19,855 bases of DNA from Candidatus Latescibacterota bacterium. Lineage in GTDB: Bacteria; Latescibacterota; UBA2968. The position numbers and the translations under genes are program-made. Where the stretch lies: NCBI GenBank assembly GCA_038279365.1, contig JAYODI010000020.1, positions 1 through 19,855 of the forward strand, read 5' to 3'. Positions within the stretch are counted from its first letter, which is position 1. The number at the start of each line of letters is the position of its first letter. The notes under the pieces were generated by a model. That model did no database searches. It saw only the letters and a program-made list of their open reading frames with translations, and was not told where the DNA came from. This document shows, piece by piece, positions 4,162 to 18,461 of this stretch.

Positions 4162-5385
4162 TTATTCAATGATTGTACCTTCTTTTTGAACGCGTTTTGA
4201 CATTGTTTTGAAGGTTTCAGATCCGTCATCAACCCAGCGTTCATAGTGAATGCCTTGCACAGCTCCTTCTTCAAAGCCTGTGATGGTTTCAACTTTGGGG
4301 TCGCCTTGGGTATAGATTTTGTGTCCACTGGGCAAATGAATGACACCTAAGGCATTGATTTGAGCAATGTGCGCGCGTTTGGCCGCTTGTTGGAGCTTTT
4401 TTTCATCAATGTCTAAGCCAATGCCAGGGGCTTCGGGCACACGCGAAAAACCGTCGATAACGTCAATGGTCGATGTGGTAATGTCGTCTTCATACTGATC
4501 GTCTAAGGTGATGAGGTGCGCTGTTGCGGTGGGCAAAACGGCGGCTTGGTGTAGCGAAAAAGCTTTCATGAGGGCATTGCCAGATTGTTGAATCAGCACC
4601 TGTATGTTTGCTTTGCCATACGCGTAACCGGCTTCGAGTGTTTTGCCTATGCCCCCACCGGTCATATAAATATCGGCCACGCCGTGAATGACCTCTTGCA
4701 TCCCACCCAGTTGCGCATTGTGCATGACGATTGGAAGCTGTGTTTTGCCGCGTAGTGTGCGCCAACCATCAATGTCTGTCCAGGGAAGCGGATCTTCAAT
4801 GAAGGCCACAACGGGATAGTTGCGTTCAAGGGTAGCCACAATGGGAAGAACGGTGGCCATGGTGCGGTTGTGATTAAAATCCCAATGTAGCTTGAATCCG
4901 TCGGGGGCCACATCGGCGGCGGCTTTGGTTTGTTCTATCACGTCCCATTTGGCATCGGAATGCATTTTAAAAATACGATAACCTTGATCGACGGCACGTT
5001 GAATTTCGTTGGCAAAAATTTCGGGTGCACACGGGCGCGTCCATGCCGCCACTGGAGCGGCATCGCGTAGTTTTTGCCCCATGAGTTTGTAGGCAGGTAC
5101 TTCGAGATATTTGCCCATAACGTCGTAAAGGGCCATGCCAATGGCCATGTTAAAGTTGTTGCCAATAAAGTCGAATGGGTTGCGATCTATGAGGGGTTCA
5201 ATTTCTGAAGGTGCAATGTTGGTGCGGTCTTCATAATCGCCATAGCCAATGATGCCGTTGTCGGTTGTGATTTTGACGACCACGTGTTGGTCAATGTCAT
5301 ACATTCGTGTTTTGCCGTGATGGTTGTCATATCGGTTGGCAAGTGGGAGGGCAATGGGAATGATTTCGATGTTGGTGATTTTCAT
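4162..5385 (-). CDS. Mandelate racemase/muconate lactonizing enzyme family protein (enolase superfamily)
   Basis: MKITNIEI start after AGGAG, VVKITTDNGIIGYG, MALYDVMGKYLEVPAYKLMG, WDFN, IEDP and VPEAPGIGLDIDE. Confidence 0.9.
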   Translation of the reverse strand: MKITNIEIIPIALPLANRYDNHHGKTRMYDIDQHVVVKITTDNGIIGYGDYEDRTNIAPSEIEPLIDRNPFDFIGNNFNMAIGMALYDVMGKYLEVPAYKLMGQKLRDAAPVAAWTRPCAPEIFANEIQRAVDQGYRIFKMHSDAKWDVIEQTKAAADVAPDGFKLHWDFNHNRTMATVLPIVATLERNYPVVAFIEDPLPWTDIDGWRTLRGKTQLPIVMHNAQLGGMQEVIHGVADIYMTGGGIGKTLEAGYAYGKANIQVLIQQSGNALMKAFSLHQAAVLPTATAHLITLDDQYEDDITTSTIDVIDGFSRVPEAPGIGLDIDEKKLQQAAKRAHIAQINALGVIHLPSGHKIYTQGDPKVETITGFEEGAVQGIHYERWVDDGSETFKTMSKRVQKEGTIIE

Positions 5386-5686
5386 AGCCAACTCCTAATA
5401 GGCTTGTGGGGTGTGATGTGTTCGTTCATGATGTATGATGACATAAAAAAGGTCAAGCCACATTTGTGTGGGAGATTTTATATTTGTAGTCTTATTGGAG
5501 AGTGCCATCAAACGCATTTTTCTGCAACCAATAAAACGTGACCGACACGGTGCAGATATTCTTATGTGTGATCATTTGTGTTATCCAACAATCGTCTTTG
5601 GTTATCATCGGCCATTTGGCTGAAGTTGGTCTCTCTCAAAATATAAAAAAGTGGTAGATGTTGTTGATAGCAACTTGATGATAGCA

Positions 5687-6757
5687 TCAACAGACCTCTG
5701 GCACACCGTCTTCACGGCGTTTATGTGGGGTTTTGTGATTGCCTGCCAGGATGTCGGCGGCCGTCCAGCCCATGTTGCCATGTCTTACGGCACCATAACG
5801 AACGCTTCCTTCGTCGGCAAATGGACGCACATTGGGCAGATCGAGCCAAATGCGCAAGAGCACGCGTTTTTTATCTTCATCTTCAATGGGTTCATAGCCT
5901 TCTTTTCCGTGGAACACCGTGTAGTTATTGAAAAAGGCAATGTCACCAGTATGCAATGGAAAAGCGAAGCTATTTTTTATGGCTGTTTCGGCAATAAAAT
6001 CGAAAATTTCAGTTTCTTGATCTGTGAGTTCTTGTTCAGCTTTTTTCATGCCACCGCGAATCCAACCCGGGTGAAAACGACAGGTGACCACACCTTCTGC
6101 GGCGCTAAATGCAGGTATTTTAAAATTGGAGAATGTTGTTTCGTTTGGATAATTGTCGACTCTGTTCCAGATAAAACCTTCATAGAGTCTGGGCAGGTAT
6201 TCGGGGTGTTGGCGGAGGATTTCGTTGTATACGGTCATTGAACTGGCGGCCAAGCTTTTTGGATCATCGGGTGCTTGGCGAACACAGAAAAGACCCACGC
6301 AATCTGAGAGATCTACGTGCAGTGCGCTGGGAGTGGGTTTGCCAAGAATGCGTGCGCCGTTTTGAGGAGCCAACTTTCCATCTGTGATATAATGAATCAG
6401 ACCGGCTTCTTTGTTTTGGGTGACACCGATCCCAAGGTGCGTACAAAGGCCCCAATACATTTTTTCTAAGTCTTCAAAATTATATCCTTCTGTTGGGAAG
6501 TTGGAAAGTAAAGTGAGCCCTCTGCCATTGCGAAGTTGGTGTAAAAGGTCTTTGAGGGTCTCTTTTAAACTGGGAAGTGGAAAGTCTTTTTGTGTGATTT
6601 CGGGAAATTTTAAGCCACGTTTATTGACTTGCTGAAGGGCTTGATCCAATTCGTCTTGTTGTTGTGTTGTAAGGCTAAATTTCCAAGAGGAGTCGTGTTC
6701 TAAGTCTTCACCGGTCCAAGCACTTGCATCTTGTATGGGTTTCATATGTGGGGACAT
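5687..6757 (-). CDS. TauD/TfdA-family Fe(II)/2-oxoglutarate dioxygenase
   Basis: AWTGEDL N-terminus, HVD...H facial triad (LHVDLSD; GDIAFFNNYTVFHGK), RVLLRIWL, and an AGGAG RBS. Confidence 0.9.
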   Translation of the reverse strand: MSPHMKPIQDASAWTGEDLEHDSSWKFSLTTQQQDELDQALQQVNKRGLKFPEITQKDFPLPSLKETLKDLLHQLRNGRGLTLLSNFPTEGYNFEDLEKMYWGLCTHLGIGVTQNKEAGLIHYITDGKLAPQNGARILGKPTPSALHVDLSDCVGLFCVRQAPDDPKSLAASSMTVYNEILRQHPEYLPRLYEGFIWNRVDNYPNETTFSNFKIPAFSAAEGVVTCRFHPGWIRGGMKKAEQELTDQETEIFDFIAETAIKNSFAFPLHTGDIAFFNNYTVFHGKEGYEPIEDEDKKRVLLRIWLDLPNVRPFADEGSVRYGAVRHGNMGWTAADILAGNHKTPHKRREDGVPEVC

Positions 6758-6791
6758 GATTGTTTCTCCTTGTTATGAGCGATACATGTAT

Positions 6792-8810
6792 TTACCGTTC
6801 TTCTATACCGTGATACCGGTTGGGGCGTCCACCATAAACGGGTGCCCGGCCGTCCCAAAATTCAGGTATCGTGTTGATTTTGCCTCTCCATGCTCCTCTT
6901 GGTGGCAGCATGTGGGCAGTAAAAGATTGGTTTTGCGAACCGGGCGATGTGGCTGTCTGTGTTGCTGTTTCAGAATGGTAGTGATAGCCATAAATACCAT
7001 GCCTGTGCCCTCCCCAAGCATCAAGGGGTTCTGTAGCCCCTTCGCTGCTGGTGTCATTGGGTATATATTTTCCATAGCCTGCAATACCGTCAAAACCCAA
7101 GCTGATAATGGGAGGATGGGTTTGACCAGCGTAATCTGGTGTGTTGTATAAGTTAAATCCTCGCCCTGTTGCACTGTGTCCATCGGCGTGGTAGTGCGCT
7201 CCTAAACCGCGGCCTGAGTGAATGCCCGTGCTGGTGATTTCACCTACTTCTTGTGCAAATGCGAGTGTGTTGTTGAGGCTGGGATAAACAACAACACCAT
7301 CAATAGCGATGCCGGTTGCAGAGACACTGGCATAGTTGAGATGGTTGAAGGTTGAAACGTTTTCATCTGTGGCGAGGTTGTCTGTTAACGTATTTTCTGT
7401 AAGCGTTTCTACTTCGCCGTAATCTTTCATGGCAATTTTGGCCATATATCCCATGCGAGCGGCATTGCGTGTTACTTTTTGCTCTGGGTATTGGGTTCCT
7501 GGTGCGCCATCTCCTGGGGGGCGTGGTACATCCCACAAGTGGGTCATGCCTTCAGGAACACCATAACTGGCAATGACCATAAATGGATGATGTATGCCAT
7601 TGGCATCTGCTTCATTGGTAAAGTAAACATAAGGAATGGTGTTTTCGCCAATCTGCATGTCATACATGTCTGATACTTGTACGATTCTTGAGAGCATGTT
7701 TTGGCGAACTGTTTTGTAAAATGTGATGGGATAGCGGAGTTTTGATCCTTCCGCAGTTAGGGTAGAGTCGATGGTCGCAAGCATGGTTTCTGCGGCTTTT
7801 GTGGTTGCATCATTTAATCCTTTTGCGGTTACTTGGGCTTTGTAAGGCCCTAAAATATCTTTGATGGATCCTGCCAGCCGATCTGTACCGTTGGAGGTAG
7901 CTCGAAATTCTTCATTGCTCACACGTGCGACATTTGTTGGGTTAAAGTCAATGGGTATGTCTTGTTCTAAAGGGGCTTGATACAATATGAATGGTGTGCC
8001 TGTTTGGGGGCTAAGAACAACTGCCGAACCGTTGATGGCAACATGCATCGCGGCCCAAGTGCTATCTGCTACAAAATCACTTGTTGCTGCATTGTAGGTA
8101 TAATGCCTGTTGGCAGTGATTTGTGTGGTTCCATTTGATGTTGTGAAGGTAAATGTGAGGAAGGCTGCCGATGTGGTGTTTAAGAAATAGCTTCGTATAT
8201 CTCGCATTACGAGTGTGGGCGTCCCTGCGATGGTGGCGTAGTCAACGGCATAATTGGCATGTTTGGGCGAGATAATCATATAGGTATTGGAAGATATTTC
8301 GATGAGTTTAAACATCGATTTGAGCAGTGTGTTTTGAGGCAGTGTGGTTGATGTGGCCAATCCACTTTCTATGGTAAAGGTGGCAGCATATGAGGTGCTG
8401 TTGTCATTTATGGCAATCAGGTCTTGCGTGTTTGCAACACCGAGTGAAATGCGTGTGAGATTGCCGAGCGATTGGGTGTGTGGTGTCCAGGAGATGGTTT
8501 GGTTGGTGGCAAGGATTTCAGCAAAGGTTTGAGGCGCATAAAAGCGTGTGGGTGTCGCATTGTCATTTCCCGTTGTGCCAAAGTTGCTGGCAAAGGTGAC
8601 AAAGTCTGAAAAATCCACTTTGTTGTCGCAGTTGAAATCTCCAACGAGCGATCCACACTCTGCATTGGGTTCTCCTGTTTTACCGAAGTTTGTTGCAAAG
8701 ATAAGGAAGTCGGAAAAGTCTACTTTGTTGTCGCTGTTTAAATCACCCGTTTGGGCATGTAAGGGGCCGATGTAAAAAAAGGAAAAGAGAAAGAACCAAT
8801 ATATTTTCAT
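6792..8810 (-). CDS. Secreted protein with N-terminal dockerin-like EF-hand repeats and C-terminal YHYH-type domain
   Basis: Signal peptide (..PLHA/Q), two DxNxDxxVDFxDF repeats, and C-terminal GIAIDGVVVY, AHYH, GFDGIAGYG, LDAWGGH, YHYH motifs. Confidence 0.8.
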   Translation of the reverse strand: MKIYWFFLFSFFYIGPLHAQTGDLNSDNKVDFSDFLIFATNFGKTGEPNAECGSLVGDFNCDNKVDFSDFVTFASNFGTTGNDNATPTRFYAPQTFAEILATNQTISWTPHTQSLGNLTRISLGVANTQDLIAINDNSTSYAATFTIESGLATSTTLPQNTLLKSMFKLIEISSNTYMIISPKHANYAVDYATIAGTPTLVMRDIRSYFLNTTSAAFLTFTFTTSNGTTQITANRHYTYNAATSDFVADSTWAAMHVAINGSAVVLSPQTGTPFILYQAPLEQDIPIDFNPTNVARVSNEEFRATSNGTDRLAGSIKDILGPYKAQVTAKGLNDATTKAAETMLATIDSTLTAEGSKLRYPITFYKTVRQNMLSRIVQVSDMYDMQIGENTIPYVYFTNEADANGIHHPFMVIASYGVPEGMTHLWDVPRPPGDGAPGTQYPEQKVTRNAARMGYMAKIAMKDYGEVETLTENTLTDNLATDENVSTFNHLNYASVSATGIAIDGVVVYPSLNNTLAFAQEVGEITSTGIHSGRGLGAHYHADGHSATGRGFNLYNTPDYAGQTHPPIISLGFDGIAGYGKYIPNDTSSEGATEPLDAWGGHRHGIYGYHYHSETATQTATSPGSQNQSFTAHMLPPRGAWRGKINTIPEFWDGRAPVYGGRPNRYHGIEER
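8577..8747 (-). repeat. Duplicated dockerin-like Ca-binding repeat (protein level)
   Basis: GDLNSDNKVDFSDFLIFATNFG and GDFNCDNKVDFSDFVTFASNFG. Confidence 0.85.
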
Positions 8811-8896
8811 GGGGCTGTTTCCTTGAGCGTCTGGTACCGTTTTGGGTGCTCGGAGTCTTTGGGTTAAGTGGGTTGCACAGGTAGGTTTACCAATGC

Positions 8897-9712
8897 TTAT
8901 GGGGTGGCTTTGTAAAGCCGTGAACCTTTGTCTTCTTTGCGGTAATGAGGGGCTGAGATGACGGCTTTTTGTTTTTCGGTGAGATCATCATAAAAGGGTG
9001 GTGGTGTGTAGGTGCCCATCAATCGCTCGGCTGTAACGCCCGTGTTGTAGCGCATGATCACAGAGCGCCGTTGGTGTTTGGCCACCCAAGGGAGTGAGCC
9101 GTGCATCAAGCATTCAACGAATAGAATGGCATCGCCTGCTTGGGCGGGAATTTGAACCATGCGCTCTTGGTGGGTTTGGTAGAGGCGGATGTCGTCGGGG
9201 CAAGGGTAATTGGCCTTGTGACTGCCGGGCAAACAAGCAAAACCGCCATCGTGAGGCCCCACATCACTGAGTTGTACGGCAATATTGGTCATGCCACAAA
9301 ACATGCGCCCATTGTGATAGCGATAGGTGCGCGAGCGGTCTAAAGGTTCACCGCCTTCATGAAACCAAAACCCTTCTGCACCTTCGTCCATGGTGATGAT
9401 GCTCATGGCTTCTAGGCGAAAACCTGGGCCGAGTAAATTTTCCAAATAGGGGGTGAGCTTTTCATGCACCATCATGTCGCGAAAAATATGGCAATGAGGT
9501 TTGTCCCAGGTGAGCATGCCACTCAAGTCACCACGTCCAATACGACCTTTTAGGGATGTAGATTCTCGGGCCAAATCGTTTGGGCGAATTTGAACTTTGT
9601 GGGCATGGTGATCGATGGCTGCATTGGCGAAAGCAATTTCTTCAGTTGATAAGACATTTTTGATAACCAAATAGCCATGTACGTCAAAAAGATATTTGTC
9701 TGTGTCGGTCAT
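8897..9712 (-). CDS. Phytanoyl-CoA dioxygenase (PhyH) family protein
   Basis: YLFDVHGYLVIKNVLS, DGGFACLPGSHK, AGDAILFVECLMHGSLPW and RRSV. Confidence 0.9.
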   Translation of the reverse strand: MTDTDKYLFDVHGYLVIKNVLSTEEIAFANAAIDHHAHKVQIRPNDLARESTSLKGRIGRGDLSGMLTWDKPHCHIFRDMMVHEKLTPYLENLLGPGFRLEAMSIITMDEGAEGFWFHEGGEPLDRSRTYRYHNGRMFCGMTNIAVQLSDVGPHDGGFACLPGSHKANYPCPDDIRLYQTHQERMVQIPAQAGDAILFVECLMHGSLPWVAKHQRRSVIMRYNTGVTAERLMGTYTPPPFYDDLTEKQKAVISAPHYRKEDKGSRLYKATP

Positions 9713-9809
9713 TTTGAGATTCTGGGTGAAGGTTTATAGGTGGTGATACACATTTCATGATTTGTGTAGAACAAAGGAAAGATGATCCGATTCTTTTATT
9801 CGTGTTATC

Positions 9810-9839
9810 AAGGTAGCACTGTTTACAAGCGAAAATCAA
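9810..9839 (-). promoter_or_regulatory. Putative sigma70 promoter for the PhyH-family gene
   Basis: TTGATT-N18-TACCTT with extended -10 TG, about 100 nt upstream of the ATG. Confidence 0.4.
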
Positions 9840-9950
9840 GTTGTTTGTGGGGTGTTTCTGTGTGATTTAGGAAGTGTTGTTCTCTGTCTTGTTCGGGGTG
9901 TGATGAGGGAGGTGTATAAAGAGGTTTTTAGGTGGTTTCCAAATTTTTTC

Positions 9951-9979
9951 TTGACGCACGGTTTTTGATTCTCTATATT
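9951..9979 (+). promoter_or_regulatory. Near-consensus sigma70 promoter
   Basis: TTGACG-N17-TATATT with an AT-rich tract upstream. Confidence 0.7.
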
Positions 9980-9985
9980 TTTCCC

Positions 9986-10118
9986 GACTGGCCTATGAAA
10001 AAAACAATAGTTTGAAACTCATTGAGTTTCAGCAGGATAGCCACTCCAGTCCTTGAGGCGCCTGCTCGTTCCTTCACTTTTTTGGTGATTTGGTGGATGA
10101 ACGAGTAGGCGTTTTTTT
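9986..10118 (+). ncRNA. Candidate structured small RNA (about 133 nt), family not recognised
   Basis: Begins 7 nt after the -10 box. 5' GACTGG pairs with CCAGTC (10046-10051), there is an inner hairpin tgaaactc-att-gagtttca, and it ends in a terminator. Confidence 0.55.
10058..10118 (+). terminator. Intrinsic terminator closing the sRNA candidate
   Basis: gcgcctgctcgttc ... gaacgagtaggcgt, a 14-bp stem with two G-U pairs, followed by a T-run. Confidence 0.75.
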
Positions 10119-10206
10119 ATTTTAAATTTGAATAAGTTTTTGAAATAAAATGATTAACGTATTTTGGGGGATTTGAGAGACAACCATCGGATGATGGCCC
10201 ATTTTT

Positions 10207-10382
10207 GCGCGAGTTCTTGGCGGGACGGCGCAGTCAATCGGTCACAAGTCTCAGGTCTTAAAGTCACAGGTTTAAACCATTACAAGTTTTTGGATTTTGA
10301 CTTGTGACCTGTTGACCTACGACTTGCAACCGATTTTTTGGGGTACATGAGAAAGGCCCTCGCGCGAGTTCTTGGCGGGACG
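10207..10382. repeat. 21-bp perfect direct repeat (two REP-like hairpins)
   Basis: gcgcgagttcttggcgggacg at 10207-10227 and 10362-10382. Confidence 0.9.
10236..10335. repeat. Long imperfect inverted repeat built from 7-8-nt tandem units
   Basis: Left arm aatcggtc-acaagtc-tcaggtc-ttaaagtc-acaggtt; right arm gacttgt-gacctgtt-gacctac-gacttgc-aaccgatt. Confidence 0.8.
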
Positions 10383-10801
10383 ACGCGAGGACCCCAAATC
10401 ACACCGACAGGTACATCCGGTGCGTTGTTTCTCTTTATTTTATGTTGTGACACAGCGGTTAAGCGTTGTGTTTCAAAAGTATACCGTAATTTTCTTTTTT
10501 GTGTATGTCATGAATGTGACGTGAATTTAACATTTTCATGATAGAAGAGAGGTTTTATGCCTATTTTTGAGAATAAAATTCTGATTTTAATGTGTTTATG
10601 TTAAAATGGTCTCGGTGCACATATATGCGCAGGTTTATACATATCCGAGATAAAAAATCCTCGGTATGATCTCTGACCAAGCCAGAAGCGCTGGAAAAAC
10701 GGTTTGTTAGAAAATATCTCGACGCAGGAATACCATTTGGTCTTAAGAGAGTGGATGAATGGCATCAAAAAACGCACAGCGAAAGACATCGAAGAGATGC
10801 T

Positions 10802-11764
10802 TTAAGTGAGATAACCAAGCTGTTGCAGGTACAGCATTTGAATATTGGGATCTTTGATCTGGTTCAGGATGTGGAAAAAGGCATAGCTGACTTTAATTGC
10901 GTGATCGGCACCACCGAGTTGTAATGCACTTGGCGATTCGATCTTTGGGTCGTAAGTATTCCAATAATTGGCTGTGAGGGGGCTAAATTCTGCAGGTTGA
11001 AAATGAAGCAGATCCCCTTGTTCATCATCGGGTGGGAGGCTTCGGAGTAAGAGGATGTGTGTTTGGTGCGCCAGATACCCTTTTTGTGACAGGTCTATAT
11101 AACCCATCTCTGCCAATTCAAGGAGCGCACAGGTGTGGGTGATCAGATGAACCTGGCCACCATACCCTTTTCGTTTGATTCTATCAGACGCAGTGAGTTC
11201 TTGAAACGCTGCTTGGATGACGGTTTCAATGTTTTGGTAGGGGGCAAAGTGTTTTTCGGGTTCTACAGGAATGCCAGACATCCATCCTTTTTCTTTTCCA
11301 TAATATCCTCTGCCTGGCGAATCGTTGAATTTTTCAATGAGCTTGCAAATGCCTTCCACGATGGTTGGTGTGATCATATGTGGCATTTGCCGAAGTCCTT
11401 TTAAGGCCAACGAGGCAAAAATGGTGCAGTGACCACTTTGGCGAAGCATCGCGATTTTTTGATCTAAGGCTGAGACAATTTGTGTGAGTAAGTTTGGGTT
11501 GTTTTGTTCGTTTGGATGAGGTGCAAAAAGGGAGTCTTGTTTTTCTGCGGCTTTGGTTTGTGGATCCCAAAATTGTCCGTTTTCTTCAATTAAGGTATCC
11601 ACCAAATTTTGGAATGGTTTTTGAGCGGATGCTTCCAAGTCGTTTTCTTTGCAAAAATAATATGCTGCAATAATGGCGGCGCCAGTATGCCCTTGCATCG
11701 CACTTTTGGTCCAGGCACGACTGAGTGCCGTAAGCCCTTTTTTTAAATAGTCGTCGCTTAACAT
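10802..11764 (-). CDS. Hypothetical helical His-rich protein (possible metalloenzyme)
   Basis: Long ORF (open to 11824); ATG 11764 has GGAG upstream. Motifs GHTGAA, SGHCTIFA, VHLITH and DHAIK. Confidence 0.7.
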   Translation of the reverse strand: MLSDDYLKKGLTALSRAWTKSAMQGHTGAAIIAAYYFCKENDLEASAQKPFQNLVDTLIEENGQFWDPQTKAAEKQDSLFAPHPNEQNNPNLLTQIVSALDQKIAMLRQSGHCTIFASLALKGLRQMPHMITPTIVEGICKLIEKFNDSPGRGYYGKEKGWMSGIPVEPEKHFAPYQNIETVIQAAFQELTASDRIKRKGYGGQVHLITHTCALLELAEMGYIDLSQKGYLAHQTHILLLRSLPPDDEQGDLLHFQPAEFSPLTANYWNTYDPKIESPSALQLGGADHAIKVSYAFFHILNQIKDPNIQMLYLQQLGYLT

Positions 11765-11891
11765 TGGGGGCATCTCCAAGATATATCCAGGATTTTCTTG
11801 TTTGGATGAAAACGCAATATACATAAAGAAAAATTTTGCACATCAGATTATCGTTCGGTATGCTCTCTGTACTTTTGGACAGGGTGAGATG

Positions 11892-16070: not shown

Positions 16071-17363
16071 TTAGTCTGCAACATCACCATAAAGAATGGG
16101 TGCATTGGGGTTGATATCAAATGCACGAGAAACGCGATGGGTATGTAAATCCAGGCTGCGTTTGGCGGATGTGTAGTTTTTGCCCCATACGCTTACCCAC
16201 CCCAAGTTGTCGTAGGCTACGGGAGGTACTTCTACGCGGTCACCGTTTTGTTTGGTGTAAACAATTTCGATGAGTTTGTTGTTGCGCTTTGCATAGCGGA
16301 TGGGTTTGATGCGTACTAAACCGGGCTGTTCGGGCACCAAGGTGGTTGAAATACCCCAACCTTTTGGGCGAACAGGTGTGTGAATGGGCATGCCAATGGC
16401 CACACGGATATTTTCTTCGGCCAAATTAATGCCATAAACGCGTTTGACCAAAGGTTGAATGCAGTCGCCACCCATGCGGGCACCAATTTCGACAATGCGT
16501 GGGCCTTCGGGGGTGAGTTTGACTTCGGCATGAATTCCAGAGTGGGTTAAGCCTTGTGCTTTGACGCCACTGACCACCATGTCGCGAATGGCATTTTGAA
16601 CAGTTTGTGGAAAACGAGAGGGTGTGGTTTCGCCACGTTCTATAAATGAACCATCGTCCATTTTGGCTTTGTCAATAATGGCATAGAGGGTCACGTGGCC
16701 ATCTTTAACAACGCCTTCGACACTGACTTCTGGGCCAGACAAAAATTCTTCAAGCACAAACCGAGCGGGCGGATAGGGATATAAGCTATCTTGCACACGG
16801 GCACGGTTGCGATTTTCGCGATAAATTTTAAGGGCATGCTCGGCATTTTCAACGCGGGTAACCCATTCGCTGTCGGCACCCCATTCGGGTTTGAGCACGG
16901 CAGGTAATTTGAGTTCTCGGCAGGCTTGAATGAGTGATTCTTCGCCTGTAATAAGGCGGAAATTGGGAACGGGCACACCGGCATTTTTGAATGCTTCACG
17001 CATGTGATATTTGCTGCGTGCATTCATGGCGGCTTTGGGCGTGTTGCCTGGCAAACCTAAGTGTTGGGCAATTTCGGCACAGGTGGGTACGTCTTCTTCC
17101 CAGAATGTGACCACGCCTGTGAGTTTGACACGTTGATGTAGTTCTTCAACAAGAATGAGAATATCGGCAAGGGTTTTGCCGTGGGTATAAATCGTTTCTT
17201 GGGCATAATCATCTGCCCAGCCGGGGTTGGCATTGAGAAGGTAAATTTCAATACCCATTTCGGCAGCGGTTTCGAAGGTGAGGCGCTTTTTGACGGAGCC
17301 GCTGTGTACAAAAAGCAATTTGGGGCACGTAGGTGCGGGTGTGAGGGGTTGGTTATCTATCAT
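16071..17363 (-). CDS. ATP-grasp domain protein (L-amino acid ligase-like) 1
   Basis: RSKYHMREAF, PAVLKP, LEEFLSGPEVSVEG, IHAEVK and VEIGARMGGD; GGAGG RBS. Confidence 0.92.
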   Translation of the reverse strand: MIDNQPLTPAPTCPKLLFVHSGSVKKRLTFETAAEMGIEIYLLNANPGWADDYAQETIYTHGKTLADILILVEELHQRVKLTGVVTFWEEDVPTCAEIAQHLGLPGNTPKAAMNARSKYHMREAFKNAGVPVPNFRLITGEESLIQACRELKLPAVLKPEWGADSEWVTRVENAEHALKIYRENRNRARVQDSLYPYPPARFVLEEFLSGPEVSVEGVVKDGHVTLYAIIDKAKMDDGSFIERGETTPSRFPQTVQNAIRDMVVSGVKAQGLTHSGIHAEVKLTPEGPRIVEIGARMGGDCIQPLVKRVYGINLAEENIRVAIGMPIHTPVRPKGWGISTTLVPEQPGLVRIKPIRYAKRNNKLIEIVYTKQNGDRVEVPPVAYDNLGWVSVWGKNYTSAKRSLDLHTHRVSRAFDINPNAPILYGDVAD

Positions 17364-17584
17364 AGTACTTAATGACCTCCATAGTCGAGCAGGTAAACGG
17401 TGGAACGCAGAAAATTATGTGAATAATCGGATTTCATGATTGTATCCTTGAGTGCAAGTTGTGATGCTTAAATAGGTAAACAATTTCTGTGCCAAAAGCG
17501 ATAAACCGTGGTTTTGCGTGTCAACGTGTGTCAATGGCGACAAAATTTCGTAGTGAAAGGCCCAATAGGGTCATTTTGTCGCCC

Positions 17585-17614
17585 AAAAAAAAAGCACCGT
17601 TGTTTAACGGTGCT
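17585..17614 (-). terminator. Leader terminator T3
   Basis: AGCACCGUU-AAAC-AACGGUGCU followed by U8. Confidence 0.85.
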
Positions 17615-17656
17615 AAAATAAAAAAGCGCACTGTCAAACAACATTCAACAGTGCGC
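17615..17656 (-). terminator. Leader terminator T2
   Basis: GCGCACUGUU-11 nt-GACAGUGCGC followed by UUUUUUAUUUU. Confidence 0.82.
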
Positions 17657-17682
17657 CATACATAAGCATTGAGCGATTGCAC

Positions 17683-17732
17683 AAAACGCACTGTTGTTGA
17701 AAAGGGCAAAACCTCTGATCTTCAACAGTGCG
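17683..17732 (-). terminator. Leader terminator T1, overlapping the aptamer 3' end
   Basis: CGCACUGUUG...CAACAGUGCG, a 10-bp stem followed by UUUUG. Confidence 0.6.
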
Positions 17733-17820
17733 GCTATCCTAAATGGTGTTACGCCAAGTGAGGACCCGTTCCTTCGCGTCCTGCGTTTTCACGCAGTTTG
17801 CCTTTTCAATTTCGAAGATC
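17717..17820 (-). ncRNA. c-di-GMP-I (GEMM-I)-like riboswitch aptamer, variant
   Basis: GAUCUUCGA...AAAAGGCAAAC-UGCGU-GAAA-ACGCA-GGACGCGAAG..CGGGUCCU...AGGAUAGCCG..UUGAAGAUC: 9-bp P1, GNRA-capped P2 with GGCAAAC/GGACGC, and P3 with the AG bulge. Confidence 0.8.
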
Positions 17821-17827
17821 AAGGGCA

Positions 17828-17856
17828 AGTTTAAAGAAACGGAATCTTATTGTCAA
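17828..17856 (-). promoter_or_regulatory. Sigma70 promoter for riboswitch leader and ATP-grasp operon
   Basis: TTGACA-N17-TAAACT; the predicted start near 17821-17820 coincides with the first P1 base. Confidence 0.8.
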
Positions 17857-17876
17857 CAAAAAAATAAAATATTTTT

Positions 17877-18461
17877 TTATCGGTCTTTCCAAATGAGCAA
17901 ACATTCACGCTGGCGTCGCCATCCTAAGCAGAATCGACGCTTTTTGGTGCTGCTGTCAAACCAATCTTTTTGAATGGCGAGGTTGGGTTGACGGCCATCT
18001 AAACTTTGTAACACACGAACTTGTCCTGCTAATCCTTGTAGGCGTGTTCGGTAATAAGCATCGAAGCAATAAATCCAATTATCTTTGGCATATTGGGCCA
18101 ATATGAAGTGTTCTTCTGCTTTGCTTAAAAGCACATTGCACATTGCCACGCCACCACTGTCGAAACATTGGGTGATTTTGTTAAGGGTGACATTGTCGCC
18201 ATCCAGATACTCGGTGGTGACACTGTAGCGTGGTGTTTTATAAGAAGAAAGAAATTCGGCCAGTAAGCGTAAGGCCAAACGGCTGGTGCCTGCACGCCCC
18301 AATTTATTGCCCCTTCCAACGGTATCGAGACTATACATATAAATGTGTCGTACGATAATAGGGGGAATGTCGCGCCGGTCAAAAAGATATGAAATGGCAT
18401 TTAGCAGCGTTGCCGGTGCACAGTCGTATTCAGAGACTTGATAACTGAGCGGTACTCTCAC
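17877..18461 (-). CDS. Peptidase C39-like (papain-fold cysteine peptidase) protein
   Basis: YQVSEYDCAPATLLNA (Q...C), EHFILA and YCFDAYY give the Cys-His-Asp triad; GTG start after GAGGAGG. Confidence 0.8.
   Translation of the reverse strand: MRVPLSYQVSEYDCAPATLLNAISYLFDRRDIPPIIVRHIYMYSLDTVGRGNKLGRAGTSRLALRLLAEFLSSYKTPRYSVTTEYLDGDNVTLNKITQCFDSGGVAMCNVLLSKAEEHFILAQYAKDNWIYCFDAYYRTRLQGLAGQVRVLQSLDGRQPNLAIQKDWFDSSTKKRRFCLGWRRQRECLLIWKDR

Follow-up and report, generated by a model that had tools for sequence, protein, structure and literature searches.

The locus described here raises the question of whether a riboswitch aptamer that departs from its family at two of three ligand-contact positions is decaying, or represents a sub-class with a specificity and a set of genes of its own. 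The aptamer is of the GEMM-I type (c-di-GMP-I, from cyclic di-GMP, c-di-GMP) and lies on the minus strand of a 19,855-nucleotide (nt) stretch of DNA from a Candidatus Latescibacterota bacterium (contig JAYODI010000020.1 of assembly GCA_038279365.1), referred to below as the window. A previous reading made without database searches (the sequence-only reading) had proposed G, G, and U at the equivalents of positions 20, 47, and 92 of the Vibrio cholerae Vc2 aptamer (a G-G-U pocket; pockets are written in this order throughout), and a ligand that may differ from c-di-GMP. We found that the locus belongs to a conserved GEMM-I sub-class, G20-G47-U92, that is unnamed in Rfam. We put at about 0.75 the probability that it is a functional, conserved GEMM-I variant acting as a ligand-ON antitermination switch, with ligand binding and the direction of switching as its predicted parts.

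Ligand pocket and family assignment

A cmscan search of the whole window against Rfam returned RF01051 (c-di-GMP-I) as the only family above its gathering score (minus strand, 17812-17721; 50.7 bits with a cut-off of 35; E 1.8e-07), and no second RF01051 match was found in the 6.03-Mb assembly among the 150 of 651 first-look candidates that were scored. Alignment to RF01051 and to the variant family RF03167 (c-di-GMP-I-GGC) gave the same pocket in both cases (Table 1). G20 is retained at 17802, as the sequence-only reading had stated, and is G in all 11 aligned sequences of the sub-class. At position 47 the RF01051 consensus GACGC-A-AAG reads GACGC-G-AAG, and near the 3′ end the consensus UGCCGA reads UGUUGA, positions 92 and 93 both being changed from C to U. 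The two substitutions that had been proposed from a manual alignment, A47 to G and C92 to U, were recovered in both covariance-model alignments, with no placement of a canonical A or C at these positions. U17725 was assigned as position 92 because in RF03167 the first C belongs to the junction and the next one to the first P1 pair; PMC3764141 agrees, giving G14-C93 as the apex of P1 and locating C92 in J3-1. In the canonical riboswitch, G20 reads Gα and C92 forms a Watson-Crick pair with Gβ (PMC6140456, PMC5888326), and A47 stacks between the two ligand bases (PMC6140456, PMC5888326, PMC3764141). A47 is described as conserved throughout c-di-GMP-I riboswitches and as required for binding (PMC9049102, a secondary source; PMC3764141).

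The locus is neither a canonical c-di-GMP-I pocket nor a member of the GGC family. Two Rfam variant models, a kind of check that the sequence-only reading had suggested, both remained below their cut-offs: RF03167 was the top-scoring Rfam model for the locus, with 52.6 bits for a cut-off of 59 (53.3-58.7 bits for other G-G-U members), and c-di-GMP-I-UAU (RF03168; U20-A47-U92), which has U92 alone in common with it, gave 42.8 bits for a cut-off of 65.9. The RF03167 cut-off is poor at sorting pockets, the three loci of the phylum sample above it all having A47 and C92. Like RF03167, the locus combines G47 with a retained G20, but the consensus of that family has C92 and a Watson-Crick helix base. 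The c-di-GMP-I-GGC variant reportedly stems from Weinberg et al. 2017 (PNAS 114:E2077). The mark of the GEMM-Ib (c-AMP-GMP) class, A20, is absent; that class has A20, A47, and C92, whereas the present pocket retains G20 and departs from the canonical one at 47 and 92. The Geobacter GEMM-Ib riboswitches show that one pocket change can re-target the scaffold and bring a different regulon (PMC7266159, PMC6140456). The literature searched, with Weinberg et al. 2017 and its supplements outside that search, contained no description of a G47 plus U92 class.

Apart from the pocket, the aptamer resembles RF01051 and Vc2 in its three-helix fold, GNRA hairpin, GC/GC clamp, G20, A48/A49, and bulged AG, and in having a terminator-based expression platform; it differs from them in G47, U92, a longer J1/2, and the fixed G.A and A.C pairs. 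The extent claimed by the sequence-only reading, 17717-17820, coincides with the exact outer ends of P1, and both P1 and the hairpin are intact, as claimed, with eight P1 pairs and a whole GAAA hairpin. The long J1/2 and the mismatches at the base of the second helix to which it had drawn attention are likewise real, the latter being flagged in both Rfam alignments. The P1 register used is the distal one, in which 97.4% of the cells are paired over the 11 sequences; the register adjoining the AAAA, as in RF03167, was rejected, since it pairs in 3 of 11 sequences only. The window has a GAAA tetraloop, and two relatives from metagenome contigs (L188 and L191) have GAGA. A CCUAAG-like stretch, a putative receptor for the loop in the other helix, is present in the second family described below, but the window reads AUUUAGG.

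Recurrence of the G-G-U pocket and conservation of the core

The scans covered 132 genomes of the class, 151 genomes of the phylum, and exact-pattern matches. RF03167 matches were obtained in 4 of the 31 family genomes searched and in 27 of the 151 sampled phylum genomes. A covariance model was built on 20 of the matched sequences and every locus was aligned to it; its structure was derived from Rfam and imposed by hand in place of an RNAalifold consensus from a mixed alignment, which was wrong. A G47-type core pattern gave 13 matches in 12 of the 132 class genomes. Seven of them are aptamers scoring 78.6-86.3 bits with our model (in genomes G000, G003, G156, G119, and G130, and twice in G077), and the other six gave 15.7 bits or less, or no score. 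Among metagenome contigs, the exact-pattern scan yielded 53 loci, 22 with a model match and five of these G-G-U (L174, L181, L188, L191, and L194), the aptamer of L181 being that of G119. The sequence-only reading had asked whether G/G/U recurs, and it does: the collection amounts to 11 distinct G-G-U aptamers, seven from six class genomes belonging to two families and four from metagenome contigs. Five G-G-U genomes were included in the phylum scan, and their G-G-U copies were the only GEMM-I matches in them. In a pattern scan of genome contigs, 6 of 80 loci matched the model among the matches listed; most of the loci reflect chance, and no frequency can be derived from them.

The pockets of 55 distinct aligned GEMM-I sequences, a sample enriched in G47 by design so that its counts are not frequencies, were G-A-C (24), G-G-U (12), G-G-C (11), and G-G-A (3), with single cases of A-A-C, A-A-U, C-A-C, G-G-G, and a truncated G-G-?. 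The twelfth G-G-U sequence of this set is a weak match of 28.7 bits (L029) and was discounted. In addition, a G-G-U aptamer of the second-family type occurs on a 254-nt contig from an RNA library (X17) and shares 32 matching nt with the window.

The core from the AAAA ahead of G20 through position 92 is almost invariant in the 11 sequences, whereas differences occur in the linker, P3 hairpin, and flanks. Over 27 pairs, 91.2% of the cells are paired, compared with 29-43% when the partners are slid by 1-3 columns, a comparison that is flattering because the pair-count structure was derived from the same 11 sequences. Two-sided changes were found in five pairs, and none of 500 shuffles attained the observed covariation score. 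P1, the tetraloop hairpin, and P3 all covary; in P1, U-A is replaced by C-G in two sequences and G-C by A-U in four. By eye, the P3 hairpins are unrelated in sequence and have from three to eight pairs, and are still paired. J1/2 measures 9-14 nt across the 11 sequences (5 in Vc2), the extra linker of 5 to 10 nt varying in the manner of a bulge.

Departures from the consensus at two pocket bases out of three and at two helix-base pairs would be explained by a decaying c-di-GMP aptamer that binds nothing. However, identical departures are fixed in all 11 sequences together with covarying stems, and a true remnant found in genome G071 (21.3 bits) looks quite different. All 11 sequences have the G.A and A.C pairs at the base of the helix, which also occur in canonical G-A-C relatives within the class; on this comparison the two pairs are a lineage trait. 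Furthermore, the ATP-grasp protein encoded downstream has diverged to 56-61% identity between the two families; an unconstrained leader would be unlikely to keep an identical core over that distance. We consider decay highly improbable. The comparisons indicate that the G-G-U pocket is maintained by selection, in agreement with the sequence-only reading, which had argued against simple decay.

Predicted switching mechanism and the downstream operon

Upstream of the aptamer there is a sigma-70-type promoter match, also claimed by the sequence-only reading, from which the predicted transcription start falls at about 17821-17820, the first base of P1; equivalent matches (TTGACA-17-TAGTAT or TAATAT) were recognized by eye in G003 and L188. 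Downstream of the aptamer, two predicted intrinsic terminators (T1 and T2) follow each other in tandem. Within the intervening switching segment, located by free-leader folding and duplex energies, the stretch 17696-17687 has two complementary partners, the aptamer 3′ strand (17732-17723) and the 5′ arm of T1, and 17712-17698 is complementary to the region of J1/2, G20, and the clamp (17808-17796). Six alternating complementary segments can be delimited in this way between 17732 and 17584: the aptamer 3′ strand (1), 17696-17687 (2), the 5′ and 3′ arms of T1 (3 and 4), and the 5′ and 3′ arms of T2 (5 and 6). In the window, the duplex energies are -17.5 (1:2), -18.6 (2:3), -19.6 (3:4), -10.2 (4:5), and -14.8 kcal/mol (5:6). 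The free leader folds as 1:2 + 3:4 + 5:6, the OFF state, with -89.7 kcal/mol and z = -5.4.

Based on these complementarities, transcription would begin at the foot of P1. In the absence of ligand, the aptamer 3′ strand CGCACUGUUG would pair with its downstream complement, T1 (and T2) would form, and transcription would halt. In the presence of ligand, the 3′ strand would be kept in the aptamer, and its complement would pair instead with the 5′ arm of T1, which is identical to the 3′ strand. Duplex 2:3 could form before segment 4 is transcribed, and the freed 3′ arm of T1 would then take the 5′ arm of T2; such a domino-like relay would open both terminators and allow the polymerase to enter an operon for a YGG peptide, ATP-grasp enzymes, and a decarboxylase, ligand meaning ON. 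In G003 and L188 a T2 of other sequence occupies the same site, and the relay to it is strong (4:5, -18.0 versus 5:6, -13.2 kcal/mol). L191 has T1 only, without T2, and the second family has a single terminator with the same three-segment logic, which abuts the start codon.

Several observations weigh against this switching model. The promoter match taken alone is at chance level (1 site found versus 0.8 expected in shuffles). Folding with the aptamer blocked still yields T1, and the ON state is a co-transcriptional argument only. In the window, 4:5 (-10.2 kcal/mol) is weaker than T2 (-14.8 kcal/mol), and by analogy with Bc1, a c-di-GMP-I riboswitch with two terminators from the Bacillus cereus group, T2 may terminate irrespective of ligand (PMC11218506). 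The association between aptamer and operon is also incomplete. The ATP-grasp operon occurs in 16 of the 132 class genomes, only six of which have the aptamer (five at the same locus, and G156 on a separate contig); one more (G071) has a degenerate remnant, and nine have no aptamer within the 1.5 kb of flank covered, one of these nine loci (L238) being uninformative because it includes no upstream sequence.

A rival reading, framed for the window and not necessarily for its relatives, would have switch and operon uncoupled: transcripts from the riboswitch promoter would end at T1 or T2 regardless of ligand, yielding a short leader RNA, and the operon would be transcribed from a start site behind T2. 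This would agree with T2 being stronger than its would-be antiterminator, with the distance of about 150 nt between T2 and the small open reading frame (ORF) that opens the operon, and with the precedent of Bc1, in which two tandem intrinsic terminators also lie behind one GEMM-I aptamer and T2 stays intact with ligand (PMC11218506), unlike here, where the six-segment series could open both. It would also agree with RNA-library contigs of two studies (17348-17568 and 17342-17516) that are identical to the window, although these show presence in libraries only. By contrast, the strong relay to T2 in G003 and L188, the lack of T2 in L191, and the abutment of the single second-family terminator on the start codon all speak for coupling. 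The sigma-54-like motif TGGCAC-N5-TTGT (17494-17480, minus strand) between T2 and the small ORF was rejected as a candidate; it is kept in L191 and loses its GG in G003, which also counts against a separate start. We consider uncoupling unlikely, and ligand-ON antitermination is the reading retained in what follows. RNA-library contigs lie on 17653-18000 (X15), 17348-17568 (X16), 17342-17516 (X18), and 17080-17397 (X17); that of X15 extends upstream of the predicted start. They leave 17569-17652 uncovered, a gap that is no proof of termination, as these are contigs only and DNA carry-over is possible; no start, end, or expression level was derived from them.

The operon behind the leader codes for a small peptide, three proteins resembling ATP-grasp L-amino-acid ligases, and a pyridoxal 5′-phosphate (PLP)-dependent decarboxylase (Table 1). 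The nearest NCBIfam names for the downstream genes are BacD, DdaF, LysX, and RimK, all below their cut-offs. An ORF of about 22-24 codons ending in [YF]GG[HLR] stands directly 5′ of the first ATP-grasp gene in 14 of 14 loci examined (L231-L244), as it does in the window, its C-terminal half being conserved and its N-terminal half variable. Judged from these sequences, the operon looks like an undescribed pathway that would modify, or build on, a ribosomal peptide. The combination of a small peptide, ligases, and a PLP-dependent decarboxylase recalls the LysW/LysX amino-group carriers or scaffold-peptide pathways (PMC13622209).

Nine of the 11 aptamers are followed by a gene that is part of, or leads into, this peptide/ATP-grasp/decarboxylase operon. 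The window, G003, and L188 share the order leader, small ORF, three ATP-grasp genes, decarboxylase. The contig of L191 holds the leader only and was counted among the nine by its likeness to the leader of the window, and in G156 the contig with the aptamer ends inside the small ORF, the operon being on a separate contig. In four of the nine (G119, G130, G077 copy b, and L174, whose contig ends within the gene) a FliG paralogue comes first. This paralogue has N, M, and C domains (TIGR00207, 343.5 bits with a cut-off of 226.7); it lies far from any flagellar genes. G077, G119, and G130 are of one genus, and in these three the FliG gene is succeeded by the small ORF and the ATP-grasp genes seen in the window, together with genes for a sodium:solute symporter and a GNAT protein. 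Each G-G-U genome searched has 4-8 FliG_C matches. An S-adenosylmethionine (SAM) methyltransferase gene follows the remaining two aptamers (G077 copy a and L194).

These genes differ from the membrane, motility, and secreted-protein set of RF01051: what follows a G-G-U aptamer is either the peptide/ATP-grasp operon or a methyltransferase gene. Canonical G-A-C aptamers of the class, and G-G-C aptamers from elsewhere, have efflux, secreted, response-regulator, and CheW-like genes downstream, as judged by eye from translations. The G-G-C examples (L075, L094, L173, L176, L179, L180, and L192) precede secreted or membrane-type proteins, and L027 a PhyH-like gene; none of the G-G-C examples collected precedes an ATP-grasp operon. 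In G071, the ATP-grasp operon is preceded by the degenerate GEMM-I-like remnant mentioned above (L241, 931-1049, plus strand), which has C at position 92 and suggests that the leader of the operon descends from a canonical aptamer.

Table 1. Features of the leader and of the downstream operon in the window
Feature	Position	Strand	Basis or remark
Sigma-70-type promoter match, TTGACA (17856-17851), 17-nt spacer, TAAACT (17833-17828)	17828..17856	minus	10/12 hexamer matches
Complete aptamer, GEMM-I fold	17717..17820	minus	Rfam alignments and pair count over 11 sequences
P1, 8 pairs, G.U at top	17820-17813 with 17724-17717	minus	Rfam alignments
J1/2, 10 nt from last P1 pair to G20 (5 in Vc2)	17812-17803	minus	
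G20	17802	minus	Directly before the GC/GC clamp
GC/GC two-pair clamp	17801-17800 with 17777-17776	minus	
Tetraloop hairpin	17796-17781 (GAAA loop 17790-17787)	minus	
Position 47, G in place of near-universal A	17775	minus	RF01051 and RF03167 alignments; G in 11/11
A48 and A49	17774 and 17773	minus	
Second helix	17773-17761 with 17740-17727	minus	
Non-standard pairs, base of second helix	G.A 17771/17729, A.C 17770/17730	minus	Both Rfam alignments
Distal hairpin	17756-17744	minus	
Position 92, U in place of C	17725	minus	RF01051 and RF03167 alignments; U in 11/11
Position 93, U, forming G.U atop P1	17724	minus	U in 4 and C in 7 of 11 sequences
Switching segment	17687..17713	minus	Free-leader folding and duplex energies
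Intrinsic terminator T1	17615..17657	minus	15-pair stem 17657-17625 and U run
Intrinsic terminator T2	17584..17614	minus	9-pair stem 17614-17593 and U9
Small ORF, 22 codons, ending ...LLDYGGH	17369..17437	minus	First gene past the leader
Three ATP-grasp L-amino-acid-ligase-like genes	17363-16071, 16126-14654, 14653-13415	minus	NCBIfam, below cut-offs
PLP-dependent decarboxylase, ornithine/diaminopimelate type	13452-11977	minus	NCBIfam, below cut-off

Further genes follow on the minus strand at 4162-11824 and may be part of the same biosynthetic cluster. Two of them code for proteins of 340 and 672 amino acids to which neither Pfam nor NCBIfam gave a match; the others specify dioxygenases of the PhyH and TauD families and an enzyme of the enolase superfamily. 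In G003, a sodium:solute symporter gene takes the place of the 340-amino-acid one, and the PhyH-like dioxygenase downstream of the G-G-C copy L027 (genome G032) resembles that of the window cluster.

Candidate ligands of the G-G-U aptamers

A cyclic dinucleotide is the most likely ligand; the scaffold, together with G20, A48/A49, and the clamp, points to a molecule of the dinucleotide type. Our best single guess, held tentatively, is that c-di-GMP is read with altered affinity or selectivity. Five GGDEF domains were found in G000 by Pfam search, two of them with an intact GG[DE]EF motif and Asp at the base-specifying site; all GGDEF domains of this genome, the only one inspected by residue, carry Asp there. 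Hypr GGDEF enzymes have Ser or Thr at the base-specifying site. SMODS/CD-NTase proteins were found in none of the five G-G-U genomes searched, whose completeness is 84-98.5%. The 21 GEMM-I copies of an unrelated genome include two with G-A-U, three with A20, and one with G-G-C amid ordinary ones. The retained G20, the canonical, Asp-type GGDEF cyclases, the failure to find a cyclic GMP-AMP synthase, and the presence of U92 among ordinary copies are just as compatible with a retuned c-di-GMP sensor. DAC cyclases are present in all five G-G-U genomes searched, and therefore c-di-AMP would be available too.

A shift of specificity toward a cyclic dinucleotide containing both G and A, such as 3′3′-cyclic GMP-AMP (3′3′-cGAMP), is a somewhat unlikely alternative, and our next guess after c-di-GMP. 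In it, G20 would recognize a guanine through the Hoogsteen edge, as it does in Vc2, and an adenine would be Watson-Crick paired to U92, giving a sensor built the opposite way round to the Geobacter A20/C92 class. The roles of C92 and G20 toward Gβ and Gα (PMC6140456, PMC5888326) are consistent with this, as is the behavior of an engineered Vc2 aptamer, G20A/C92U, which like the C92U mutant has U92 (Smith et al. 2010, via PMC9049102, PMC7288161, and PMC6140456). According to secondary sources (PMC9049102, PMC7288161), Vc2 G20A/C92U binds c-di-AMP and loses affinity for c-di-GMP (4900 nM versus 0.011 nM), values that belong to this double mutant and not to a G20/U92 aptamer; the engineered mutants, moreover, have A47, whereas the natural aptamers combine U92 with G47 and an extended J1/2. 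Also in favor of a shift, U92 is present in 11 of 11 sequences while canonical relatives of the class keep C, both pocket changes are fixed together where those relatives keep A47 and C92, and the regulated genes are unlike those of G-A-C and G-G-C copies. The missing SMODS/CD-NTase proteins and the Asp, rather than Ser or Thr, in the GGDEF domains of G000 point the other way. So do the G-A-U copies, 2 of 21 in one genome, which suggest that c-di-GMP sensors tolerate U92, and the change of A47 to G, which this alternative leaves unexplained.

A second alternative, which we regard as distinctly unlikely, is a ligand beyond the known cyclic dinucleotides. It might be some further dinucleotide, cyclic or linear, or else a nucleotide-like compound that is made by, or is an intermediate in, the peptide/ATP-grasp pathway under the control of the switch. 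A47 is described as universal and needed for c-di-GMP binding (PMC9049102, PMC3764141), the two pocket changes coincide with a J1/2 enlarged to 9-14 nt, and the aptamers are tightly tied to one biosynthetic-looking operon and a methyltransferase instead of the broad 'GEMM' gene set. On the other hand, the GEMM-I architecture, G20, A48/A49, and the clamp are unchanged, which favors a dinucleotide-shaped ligand, and the genes suggest no compound that could be named. A broader proposal, that G-G-U represents a third natural GEMM-I specificity, in which a new dinucleotide-type signal, or 3′3′-cGAMP from an unrecognized synthase, would activate the peptide/ATP-grasp pathway, seems to us improbable at present. 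A c-di-GMP sensor with altered affinity or selectivity remains the preferred guess.

Public annotation would label this locus plainly as a c-di-GMP riboswitch. It is known that the change of G20 to A, by itself, gave rise to the cGAMP riboswitches and brought a whole regulon to light. In the present case two further pocket bases are altered together, appear to be fixed by selection, and are tied to one unusual operon, which is the signature used to pick altered-ligand variants. This makes the G-G-U sub-class a promising candidate for a sensor whose tuning or target has changed. As a low-affinity c-di-GMP sensor it would be a natural example of tuning, of use for biosensors, the alternative being a sensor of another signal. 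Either way, it would provide a regulatory handle on an uncharacterized peptide/ATP-grasp pathway in a poorly studied uncultured lineage. Other pockets were met in the same phylum as well: A20-A47-U92 (L024, in G071), A20-A47-C92 (L023, in G105), and G-G-C (L027, in G032). The first of these is the natural counterpart of the engineered double mutant that binds c-di-AMP, and the second is of the cGAMP type.

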